Shown here: positions 9,459-18,400 of the stretch, piece after piece
Layout: every line of letters begins with the position of its first letter
Numbering within the stretch: position 1 is the stretch's first letter
NCBI RefSeq assembly: GCF_037042905.1
Contig: NC_087245.1
Location: forward strand, 16,928,001-16,992,000
Source: Lytechinus pictus
Taxonomy: Eukaryota
Direction: 5' to 3'
DNA length: 64,000 nt
Program-made: the position numbers and the translations under genes
Notes under the pieces: model-generated
The model's database searches: none
What the model saw: only the letters and a program-made list of their open reading frames with translations
Told to the model about the DNA's origin: nothing

Positions 9459-12400
9459 ATGAGGACATTCATCGTACTTCTTCTTGCCGTGGCGGCATCC
9501 GCCAGATTGGCACCCCTTCTCACCCAAAGGAATCGCATTCCAGGACGTTACATCGTCAAGCTGAAGGTTGGTACCTTTCGTACACTTAATTGTACAATAT
9601 ATTCACCCAGAACATAATATGTGTCATTAATGTGTCATTACGAAAGTTTTGTAACTATTATTAAGTCGAAATAATTTGTATTACTATATCAGAAGGTGCG
9701 TTGAAAATGACAAAGGAATTATAATGGTCAACCATGCGGACCGAGATGCGACATTTAAACGCAGTTGCCTGCAGCATCATTCGGGAATTTGGCGATAGTT
9801 AAACGGATATTCCTGAATTAACCTCCCTTGACAACATTTATACAGATTGAGTTGAAAACAATCCATTCAGTAATCATGATCAGGTCAGAAACAAGAACAT
9901 GAATATTTTATTCATTTTGCTTGCGTACGTTGTGTTGTCCTCCTGTCTTAAGGCCTTGCTGAACTTGGATAAATTTAACAATGGGCAAGTAAACAATCTA
10001 TATCATTTTTTGCTGTAAATGATCTGCTTATAATACCATTTAATCATTTATCCTAATAATATTATTTTGGGGGCCTTAACAGAGCGGAGAGAAAGCTGAA
10101 GACATGATCTCTACCTTGAGCGGAGTGAACGTCCTTTACAAGTACAAGACTGTTTTCTCTGGATTCGCTGCACAGCTTTCTGATCGCATGGTCCAGAAGG
10201 TAATATAATCATCCAGGCTATCTGTTCATACATCAGCATCAATAATTTAAGCATATGTATGTTTCGTAATATGGGTGTTTATGGTATTGAACTTCTGAAA
10301 CGAGGTTTAATAAAATTTAACCGGAGTTTACTTTTCACTGTTTATATTAAACAGTTTTATCGATAACACTGAAAGAGACGTGACCAATCCTATATTCATA
10401 CCAAACTAACCCGACGTTAACCAGCCGATGCTTTGCCATTCAAAATAGCCTTATAGCTTTGATCGGTATGGATTTGGTTTCCTCGCGATGACTGTATCAT
10501 TAGCCCGAACTAGGAACCTCTTAATCAATGTGAAACTTCACCATGAAAGGCTCCATCGCCTGATTATGAACAAGGGTCAAGGGATGAAAGCTTCGTTTAG
10601 TTTGGTTTTACTCACGGTAAAAAAATACAGGATATAAATTAAACAATGTTTAAAAAGGATAATTAGATAAATGAATGTTATACATAAATTGAAATAAATT
10701 ATATTCAATTATTCAATATTTAGAATGATCCACTTCAGAGTAGCTATAAAAGTTAGTTTCTTCTTTCTCGGGATCCTTGGGATTTCGATAATTAGATATA
10801 CATCATTTATGATCTAAACAACACAAAGGTTTTCGCTTGTTTCTTTTGTCGCTCCGTTGGCATGAACAGCTCCGTGAGTCCCCTGCTGTGGAGTATATCG
10901 AAGAGGATGGCGTTGTCTTCGCCAACTCAGTGGAGTCCTGGGGTCTTGATCGTGTTGACCAGCTCAGTCTCCCACTTGATGACGTTTACACACCAATCGG
11001 TGATGGCAATGGCGTCGATGTCTACGTCATCGATACCGGTATCAATGAAGGTCATGTAGACTTTGGCGGAAGGGCGTTCATCGGATATGACGCTCTTGGC
11101 GGATCGGTGAGAATACCTTGCTCGATTTGCTTCTATTTTTTTTCGCACACTTTTTGATGGGTTGGTTGATGAGTAATACGATTGCAAAGTATTATGCTAT
11201 TCCTCAGTTTTTTACACTTATGGAAAACATTATCCAAAGCTATTTTGGATTGATGTACTTCTTCACAGACATACACATACGTATCACGCATTTGATGCTG
11301 CGATCTAGCATATCAATACATCGAAACGTTGATAAAAAATACATGTTTGTCTAATTTGGTCTTAAAAATACCTTCTGCTTTAAGAGCCTACTCGGATAAT
11401 CATGTAAAAGTTCTCCGCAAAGTAAGTCTACCAAAGGGAAAGAGTTCCATTTGCGACAGCCACCTTAGCTAACCCTAACCTTACCCCAAACCCTTTATAT
11501 ATATATATATATATATATATATATAATTTTTTTCACTTTGGGTAGCTGTCGCAAGAGGAACTCTTCCCTACCAGAGTTCAACAGCCGCTATCTTTCTTTT
11601 AGTTTACTCTCTTTATGTGATAAAACGAACATCAAACTCATTTTTGACAGGGTGACGACTGCAACGGTCACGGAACTCATTGCTCTGGAACAGTAGCCGG
11701 AACCCTCTATGGTGTCGCTAAAGCATCCAATGTGTATGGTGTTCGTGTTCTTGGCTGTCTTGGCTCTGGATCATGGGCCGGTGTGGTCGATGGTAAGGTC
11801 GTGTCTTTAAAGAATAGAACTTCAACCTGAAACTCAACAAGGCTACTACTGGCTTCGCACAAACACACAATAAGCAGCTTCAAAAGTATTTGTAACACTC
11901 AACCGGTCGTTGTTCCACGCGTTAGGCAATATAATGGCTATAGCCCACTTTCAATCTCTAGTCTTGTCTGCAAAATTCGTGGTGTCAAGATACCTTTAGC
12001 AGTGTCATTAGTATAGGCCCTATTGTCATGATGTTCAACTGCTGCCTTAAACTATGAGGCGCCGAATGTACCAATATTATATAGAACAATTATTTGTTAT
12101 ATAATCATTATTTATTAAATAATAACTATTATTTATATATAATTCACATTTTATTTGTAAATAACTACTATTATATAAAATATCATTTCTAATTATTTAT
12201 ATATAATTCCAAGTAATACTTCATTATTTGTAAATAATAATAGTTCGACATTCCATTATTTATAAATAATGATTATTTGTTTTTCATTATTTATAAATAA
12301 TGATTATTTGTTTTTCATTATTTATAAATAATGATTATTTGTTTTTCATTATTTATAAATAATGATTATTTGTTTTTCATTATTTATAAATAATTTGTTG

Positions 12401-15400: not shown

Positions 15401-18400
15401 TATTTATAAATAATGAAGTAGACGTTTTCATTATTTAACAAATAATCATTATTTATAAATAATGGAAAACTCAACAAATTATTTATAAATAATGAAAAAC
15501 AAATAATCATTATTTATAAATAATGAAAAACTCAACAAATTATTTATAAATAATGAAAAACAAATAATCATTATTTATAAATAATGAAAAACAAATAATC
15601 ATTATTTATAAATAATGAAAAACAAATAATCATTATTTATAAATAATGAAAAACAAATAATCATTATTTATAAATAATGGAATGTCGAACTATTATTATT
15701 TACAAATAATGAAGTATTACTTGGAATTATATATAAATAATTAGAAATGATATTTTATATAATAGTAGTTATTTACAAATAAAATGTGAATTATATATAA
15801 ATAATAGTTATTATTTAATAAATAATGATTATATAACAAATAATTGTTCTATATAATATTGGTACATTCGGCGCCTCATATTAAACACAATAGCTGTTGT
15901 AGTTAACATCGTCCCAGATTATGTAGACAATGCATTTTGTAAATGCTTCTGCTAGTCTTGAACGAATTTTAGATCACTCTGCCGATTAACGAGCACCCGT
16001 GACAGAATGGATACAAGGACGATGCCATGGAAACAGAACACTTTACATAAGCATCGATAATGATCAATTCAAAACTGGGGAAACTTAATGAAGATGTTTG
16101 GCCGTAGGCCTATTCATTTTGAGTTGATGCATTGAGATACACTCAAATTTCACTCGAAACGGAACTTGGATGAAGGTTGTCCAATTGTAGAAGAGCGGTC
16201 TGTCGTCGTACCCTCTCACGTCCCTGGCCATACGCACTTCATTGATTTTTTATTCTTATTTTTTGCTTTCTGCACTAGGTTGTGAATGGGTTGCTGACAA
16301 CCATGACGGTCCCTCTGTTGCCTCCATGTCCCTTGGTGGTGGATCTAGCCAGATTGTCGACGATGCCGTTCAATACATGGTGGACGCAGGTATCACAGTC
16401 GCAGTAGCCGCAGGAAACGATAACAGCGATGCTTGCAACACCTCACCTGCTCGTTCAGCAACAGTAAGTACCCAATTATCCGCCTGTCTATTTCTACATG
16501 CATCAATCATGAAAAACATGGATAAAAATTGTCATGTTTCAGTTTAGGGTTGCAACAAAGGGACCATAGACAAAATACTTTACATTGATAAAGACTTCAA
16601 ATAGCATTATGGCGGCAGATATCTTTGTGAGCCAATTATCGGTCGTTAATGGTGATATCTGGGTCCAGACTAAATTTATAGACGTAGTTTCAATAACTGT
16701 CATCAGTTTTCTATTATAAAACCATCGCATATAGGCTATCACTGTCGGAGCAACAGATAGTACCGATACCCGTGCAACCTTCTCCAACTACGGTCCTTGT
16801 GTTGATATCTTCGCTCCAGGAGTAGCCATTACTTCCACCTGGATCCGTAGTGATGACGCCATCAACACCATTAGTGGTACCTCTATGGCCTGCCCACATG
16901 TAGCTGGTAAGTTTTTTTCACTGTCGTTGGTAACACTAAGTCATTTATGCATGCAACAGATAGATTTATGTCAGCATCAGTGGTAACTAGCTTTATGTGG
17001 TATGATATGCTTTTTATGAGCAGTAACTATATGGTGGCCATATAGGCACGCCTCTTTCAAGATGACTGAAGCCTATATCTTGCCCTCAAGGATCGATCAT
17101 TATTTGTGGTAACGCTTTTCATCTTAAAGCTGGTAGACTTCTGATATATCAATGGCTGGTGTATTTTGTATTCTCCACAATTTTTTCAGGTCGGTTACGT
17201 TTATAGCAGGTTTTATCACCATACCTCGATGGCTTGCTAAGTACAGATGGGTCAGCTTACTATCCTCTATGTTCCGTTTCAGGACAAGATTTCCCACATA
17301 TCGAACTTGGAAACATTAATAATACCCTAAAATATCCATTGTGTCAAAAATACCCTTTTTTCAAATACTAAATATGCTAGCGGGCTATGGCAAAATGTGG
17401 TCATAAAGATCTTATTGTTCATGTGCACTTTCAAAAAAATGTTATTGCACAGTGGCGACCGCACAGAAGCGTTGTTAATTAGCTTAACAGAACGCTAACA
17501 GTAGGGCCAGTCACACCTTTTACGGGAGACCACCGCTATACGCATTGTTTTCACTAACAGAGCACTAAAAGTAGGCCTACCGGTATCAGTAAACTCACAG
17601 AAGCTTAGCCGCCGAATTCCTAATAATCTAACAATAAAATGCTTAGCAGAAGCTAACAGTGGCGCTAATGTTAACACAAATCACTAACAGTGCCAAGGGC
17701 ACCAATAGTGACGATGTTTGTGAATAATTTATCTCTTTAAAACTTGTCTACCTTTCTTATACTAAGTAATTTAAAATATACCTCAACCGAATTAAAGGGG
17801 TATTCTGGGCCCAACAATATATGAATAAATTAAGTAAAATTAGATGAGCAAATTGGTGAAAATTTCATCAAAATCTTATAAAAAAATAACAAAATTCTTG
17901 AATATTAAAAATTAAACACTTTTTTTGCAACTGATATTACTGAGCAGCATGTGGCCATGAATATGCAATAAATGGAACGATAATGCCATATCCTCTAGCT
18001 CTTTCCCCTTTTTCTGATTTTATTGAAATGAACTCATAATTGTCTCAAATGTGTGTATGTCGCCCGAGTAACAAAATGATAATCTTTGAAGCAATATTCT
18101 GTGTGGACAAAATTTAAATAAACCTATTTTTGTATGATACAACAGACCCTCATTGCATTCCAATTTTTATCGATTTGTCAGTGTTTTGTTTGTCTCACTT
18201 TGCTGTTCAAACCGTATTGTTTTCTTCAGCATGGAGCACCCCTTTAGAAATATAGGTATATAGCGGGGGATGCTGATTAGTGCCAAGATATATGATCCTT
18301 TTCAAATATTTTTTGTATGCCTCAAGTATTTTTGTAGGCCTATATGATAATGAATTACATTCCTTTACCCTTTCCTAGACAAGATTTTAAACTTGTAGGA

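Follow-up and report, generated by a model that had tools for sequence, protein, structure and literature searches.

Most foldback transposons have been assigned to the Mutator superfamily, and Galileo to the P superfamily (PMC4079207, PMC3573991); long terminal inverted repeats (TIRs) have evolved in several superfamilies, and their length is an unreliable guide to classification (PMC3573991). In Galileo, a THAP domain binds multiple sites (PMC3688188). The ends of IS3EU elements are defined as TA..TA or TAY..RTA (PMC10045372, PMC12730594); in complete families the ends are always TA..TA and the target site duplication (TSD) is usually 6 bp, and of the 45 families in Repbase, 17 are autonomous (PMC10045372). 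The structure and function of this superfamily are described as largely unexplored (PMC11934779). GingerRoot elements also have mostly TA..TA ends and a 6-bp TSD, and the same TSD length is found in Polinton, which starts with AG, and in Ginger2; Ginger starts with TG (PMC6839031). In this study, we analysed 64,000 nt of Lytechinus pictus DNA (contig NC_087245.1, positions 16,928,001 to 16,992,000, hereafter the window), which holds two copies, A and B, of a transposon family that, judged from its sequence, is probably a non-autonomous foldback of the IS3EU/GingerRoot kind.

The reading we favour, with a probability of about 0.82, is that of a young, high-copy, gene-less foldback likely moved in trans, by cut and paste, through a DDE transposase of the IS3EU/GingerRoot type, its two arms likely re-copied from one another. 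We regard this as the best explanation because it fits the palindromic anatomy, the lack of coding capacity, some 400 copies with exact ends, a TSD that is constant at 6 bp but follows no fixed target sequence, low divergence, sequence variants shared between arms, and the related ends of elements in the same genome that match PF24764 (rva_4), which we take to be the profile for IS3EU-type transposases.

Copy A (12053..15880, 3,828 bp, no strand assigned) is a complete non-autonomous element with TAT..ATA termini. It lies between two copies of the TSD TTAAAC (12047..12052 on the left and 15881..15886 on the right, both given on the plus strand), which directly precede TATGAGGCGCC at the left end and directly follow GGCGCCTCATA at the right. 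An alignment of its arms, 12053-13821 (1,769 bp) and 14154-15880 (1,727 bp), has 1,722 matching positions and 3 mismatches, and of its 4 gaps one spans 40 bp. On the left, an outer domain comprising the TAT terminus and an AT-rich subrepeat array (12053..12869, plus strand) is followed by a non-repetitive inner domain (12870..13560, plus strand); these are mirrored on the right by an inner domain (14411..15103, minus strand) and an outer domain that closes with the ATA terminus (15104..15880, minus strand). The outer array of each arm consists of AT-rich repeats of 18-39 bp built on the palindromic 16-mer ATTATTTATAAATAAT, present in 12 exact copies per arm, and by analogy these subrepeats are putative transposase binding sites. 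The inner domain measures about 690 bp in each arm. Between the two inner domains, the centre (13561..14410, no strand assigned) is made of about three quasi-palindromic units of about 281 bp with the symmetry junction inside, and the 332-bp middle that separates the arms is a diverged copy of this unit, which is itself an imperfect hairpin (z = -10.9 for its DNA fold). The number and orientation of the central units differ from copy to copy. Three open reading frames (ORFs) of at least 100 amino acids were found in copy A, with no transposase match in Pfam, and comparison of the inner domain and central units with other repeats gave no match among the non-family loci compared.

A scan of the genome (812 Mb in 368 contigs) for the exact 32-bp end returned 396 forward and 391 reverse matches, and 0 for a control pattern. 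With the odds of a chance 6-mer match between flanks at about 4e-4 per copy, these counts exclude coincidence. A relaxed 17-letter end pattern gave 687 and 676 matches, which also include older variants and a sister family; the inner domain gave 1,162 first-look candidates, and the 40 that were scored had 97-100% identity. We examined 57 copies, a non-random sample drawn mostly from the first on contigs C1 and C2, with variant ends added. Two ends were recognisable in 49 of them and one end in the other 8. A 6-bp TSD flanks 44 of the 49 two-ended copies, and there are 42 different hexamers among these 44. Intact copies are mostly 3.5-4.7 kb long, and nested insertions account for the longer ones. 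Mean divergence of the inner domain from the majority sequence is 0.46% (27 copies, with 4 of 31 skipped). Overall, the sequence evidence indicates that the family is a set of several hundred young, gene-less foldbacks of about 4 kb. Along contig C1, no ends of the young subfamily are listed in the last 11.5 Mb (beyond 32.8 Mb), where older variants and the sister family are present.

Copy B (26900..45673, no strand assigned) has the TSD CTCTTC and shares its first and last 41 bases with copy A. Its total length is 18,774 bp, of which about 3.5 kb is family sequence (26900-28881 and 44139-45673), with perfectly paired arms of 1,535 bp carrying 4 mismatches. The remainder is an unrelated nested element of 15,257 bp (28882..44138, no strand assigned) with CCC..GGG ends, a 2-bp TSD (AG) and subterminal repeats of 71 and 88 bp. 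We considered this insert as the coding middle of the foldback family and rejected it, as it has its own ends and 2-bp TSD and occurs in 84 places in the genome. Nor, as a rule, does it integrate specifically into foldbacks: among 30 loci, one lies inside a foldback (the copy in the window) and one lies 48 bp from a foldback end. The CCC..GGG family has hit two different foldbacks (window 28882-44138 and C11:19881617) at 281-bp-unit positions only one base apart; the two inserts differ in TSD (AG and CA) and length (15.3 and 8.0 kb), and their host copies are not sisters. Despite these near-identical positions, the CCC..GGG family overall is not target-specific. An initial sequence-only reading of the window had described two insertions with identical termini and different perfect TSDs, arms of about 1.7 kb with an outer subrepeat and an inner non-repetitive domain, and almost no unique middle, and had supposed a recently active family with 6-bp TSDs; the data above bear out the anatomy and the TSD length and show a young, high-copy family. 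It had also recognised copy B as a family member with its correct TSD, and here the total length and the foreign insert are our corrections.

A profile search of the genome with PF24764 gave 89 match rows. The encoded proteins share motifs, by eye, with the IS3EU rows in the supplement of PMC10045372. Seven PF24764 elements could be delimited at both ends; they measure 5.2-28.1 kb, and all have TAY..RTA ends and a 6-bp TSD. Three of the seven came from an unbiased inverted-repeat search. Tandem subrepeats lie inside those arms that were read. Over the terminal 19 bases, the foldback matches the element at C15:3400071-3416721 in 15 positions, a C8 element in 13 and a one-ended C4 element in 12; the four TACGG elements compared match it in 7-9. 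Among 50,008 TAY 19-mers, the 15/19 level is reached only by the C15 element's own two ends. The C15 element is 16.7 kb long, with repeat-filled TIRs of about 870 bp. The family to which it belongs, the sister TATGGGGCGCC family, includes two gene-less 24.6-kb members with 6-bp TSDs (C1:41031926-41056575 and C2:13656914-13681537), which are 98.7% identical over 15.7 kb, have multi-kb repeat-filled inverted arms, and have interiors that are inverted relative to each other. A tree of eight cores resolved only the C4-C8 pair. The TAT..ATA ends of the foldback fit the definition in PMC10045372 and, with the related ends on PF24764 elements, sustain the earlier suggestion of an IS3EU-type signature.

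Some further elements of this type were seen in the genome. The TSD of a 10.8-kb IS3EU-type element at C3:81998044-82008892 is GGTAAA, and a HECT ubiquitin-ligase domain (Pfam E 2e-6) is encoded by a convergent ORF within it. Tandem clusters at C4:22364448-22399466 and C18:1987931-2010468 contain dozens of broken IS3EU-type transposase fragments. Two pairs of regions, C13:6.34 Mb with C19:4.54 Mb and C11:31.94 Mb with C12:25.43 Mb, are about 99% identical over 10 kb and contain IS3EU-type genes with introns; no TA..TA ends were found within the flanks read.

Coupling between the two arms of a copy was analysed in the inner domain of the same 27 copies (54 arms). Among substitutions seen exactly twice, 20 of 21 are common to the two arms of a single copy and 1 is shared across copies, where chance would pair about 1 in 53. 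A tree of the arms shows no split into a left-arm and a right-arm clade, and in several copies the two arms group as sisters (bootstrap support was low overall). The lengths of the left and right outer arrays are correlated (rho 0.77, n = 25 of 27). Coupling is unevenly distributed along the arm, with derived copy-sites found on both arms in 3 of 36 cases in the terminal 215 bp versus 38 of 123 in the inner domain. We also see composite loci in which an older family member sits inside a GGC..GCC carrier with 8-bp TSDs (L242:3933-6158, L243:3867-6090 and L244:4079-5936), the centre of the composite being a mirrored pair of the foldback's outer arms. At all three two-sided composite loci, the carrier is mirrored exactly over about 450 bp to either side, and a direct TSD is missing. 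Such a mirrored carrier junction is the outcome expected if one arm is re-synthesised from the other, and it is likely that the two arms of a copy are at times re-copied from each other.

Several points weigh against the favoured reading. Five of the 49 two-ended copies lack a clean 6-bp TSD (1 lies in a G run, 1 has a 5/6 match and 3 have none). Arm coupling is partial, with 97 derived sites on a single arm versus 39 on both, and assembly polishing could mimic part of it. Four of the seven delimited PF24764 elements are not independent support for the terminal signature, because they were delimited by means of TA(Y) ends and a 6-bp TSD. The C15 transposase gene is frameshifted and split into two frames that match PF24764, and the likeness of the C15 family to the foldback ends after about 19 bases, with unrelated subrepeats beyond. 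Finally, no transposase-bearing element with the foldback's own ends was found at the 20 PF24764 loci read with 5-30 kb of flank per side.

The autonomous partner that the sequence-only reading had expected elsewhere in the genome was thus not recovered: at these 20 loci, no transposase gene is bounded by a foldback end or arm. BLAST of copy A against their flanks gave only short, weak, AT-rich matches and one separate foldback copy, which is 3 kb long, gene-less and 28 kb from the C15 gene. Outside the 20 stand about 18 loci or clusters for which the reading covered at most 1.5 kb. They comprise a degraded cluster at C4:22.36-22.40 Mb, C8:2.19 and 3.41 Mb, C353, two C6 fragments, and 12 more members of a 308-amino-acid group, which we assume belong to the TACGG families on the basis of equal scores. 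Two protein searches for further transposase loci gave no new locus. Long copies were considered as candidate partners and rejected, since four of 5.7-13.8 kb and eight of 4.3-4.8 kb are ordinary copies or contain nested insertions, one of which was classed by eye as a tyrosine-recombinase-like retroelement. Sixteen seemingly unpaired ends were likewise set aside, as most belong to ordinary copies whose ends are variant or truncated, and the copies are gene-less. The GATTGTGCC end variant occurs in 16 places, and the 13 regions and the C2:42.82-Mb pair that were read are all gene-less derivatives; the GATTGTGCC-ended copy at C15:3374398, which has a PF24764 gene in its neighbourhood, reaches its other end after 3 kb. 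Because the partner was not found, IS3EU membership rests on the ends, the TSD and the related elements in the genome, not on a cognate gene.

A plausible course of events under the favoured reading is as follows. The element would have arisen through mirroring of one end of a parent element. A transposase would cut at the TA ends and open the target with a stagger of 6 nt, with the array of palindromic 16-mers perhaps serving as multiple binding sites, by analogy with Galileo. The enzyme may come from a cognate autonomous copy that the assembly lacks; the sister TATGGGGCGCC family is a less likely source. Repair driven by hairpins or cruciforms could keep the arms alike, and the central 281-bp units may be gained, lost and flipped in the process.

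The leading alternative is that a sister IS3EU transposase, from the TATGGGGCGCC or TATGGCGCGCC family, mobilises the foldback by reading mainly the terminal 19 or so bases, and that the subrepeats are passengers or sites for host proteins. The graded terminal identity to the transposase-bearing C15, C8 and C4 elements suits this idea, as do the missing cognate partner at the loci read and the youth of the sister family, apparent from its two nearly identical 24.6-kb members. However, the subrepeat motif differs from family to family among those examined, which suits family-specific binding, and the C15 gene is frameshifted; we consider this alternative unlikely. We hold similarly doubtful the broader proposal built on it, namely that IS3EU is a further foldback-generating superfamily beside Mutator and P, and that in this genome several hundred near-complete palindromes multiplied with no transposase of their own, through a sister enzyme for which the terminal ~19 bp suffice, while within each copy one arm is continually rebuilt from the other.

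It is considerably less probable that the element belongs to another superfamily (Mutator-like, P-like, hAT, Ginger2 or Polinton-derived) and that the TA..TA/6-bp signature is coincidental. The precedent of Mutator and P foldbacks cited above speaks for such an origin, as does the want of a gene of its own by which to classify the foldback; the TSD is 6 bp, however, rather than 7-10 bp, the ends match neither TG..CA nor AG-type termini, and the nearest terminal relatives encode PF24764 proteins. Least probable of all is that the near-perfect arms and arm-shared variants are artefacts of assembly or polishing, for while long palindromes are difficult targets for sequencing and polishing, the two arms of a copy differ by substitutions and in their number of repeats, the TSD is particular to each copy, nested insertions are confined to one arm, and the terminal 215 bp are much less coupled than the inner domain.

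Returning to the IS3EU/GingerRoot foldback that we favour, what is new is probably the foldback shape for a known kind of transposon. Among the papers listed in our searches on IS3EU, GingerRoot and sea-urchin foldbacks, we found no description of an IS3EU foldback. The gain is incremental, because long TIRs arose in several superfamilies and their length is unreliable for classification (PMC3573991). Hundreds of young copies nevertheless make many target sites and end variants of the IS3EU superfamily available for comparison, and the family displays arm-to-arm homogenisation in action. Palindromes of 4 kb in introns are predicted to yield long double-stranded RNA and fragile DNA hairpins. 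If amplification by a sister transposase were true, the family would serve as a natural assay for how IS3EU ends are recognised and for the way in which animal genomes tolerate kilobase palindromes.

Both copies in the window lie among host protease genes. A subtilase (S8) exon upstream of copy A (11648..11791, plus strand) is followed by a GT donor, and another S8 exon lies downstream (16279..16469, plus strand, with an approximate exon end); with S8 exons on both sides, copy A is therefore intronic in a plus-strand Peptidase_S8 gene. Two CUB-like exons flank copy B, downstream of a minus-strand subtilisin-like protease paralogue; from the exon order, the two exons appear to belong to one gene, which would make copy B intronic as well. 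More widely, genes for subtilisin-like (S8) proteases, with CUB exons and on both strands, are clustered in the window (17-991, 10813-22176, 26072-51562 and 60895-61101). A separate near-perfect palindrome lies at 3245-4571, with arms of about 664 bp and 99.5% identity.

Drosophila FB and sea-urchin TU elements have long modular TIRs with tandem-repeat and inner domains, and a variable non-coding middle. Tetris and Galileo, also of Drosophila, resemble the Lytechinus foldback in the same features and in the growth and exchange of TIRs among copies (PMC4079207, PMC3573991). They differ from it in their TSDs, which are 8-10 bp in Tetris and 7 bp in Galileo as against 6 bp (PMC4079207, PMC3573991), and in their assignment to Mutator or P, unlike the IS3EU-type ends seen here. 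Polinton and Ginger2 are set apart by their termini, the foldback ends being neither AG-type nor TG..CA (PMC6839031). Within the genome, the sister family with TATGGGGCGCCAAGTGT ends is the closest comparison: it shares 15 of 19 terminal bases, the 6-bp TSD, long repeat-filled arms and gene-less derivatives, whereas its subrepeats are different, it has no internal similarity to the foldback, and one member has a frameshifted IS3EU-type transposase gene. Autonomous IS3EU elements differ in having a transposase gene, which the foldback lacks and for which no cognate copy was found, and GingerRoot has TIRs of 100-150 bp in place of foldback arms of 1.5-1.8 kb that form a near-complete palindrome. 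In its TA..TA termini (here TAT..ATA), its 6-bp TSD of variable sequence and the abundance of non-autonomous members, the Lytechinus foldback is like IS3EU and GingerRoot (PMC10045372, PMC6839031, PMC12730594, PMC8232023).

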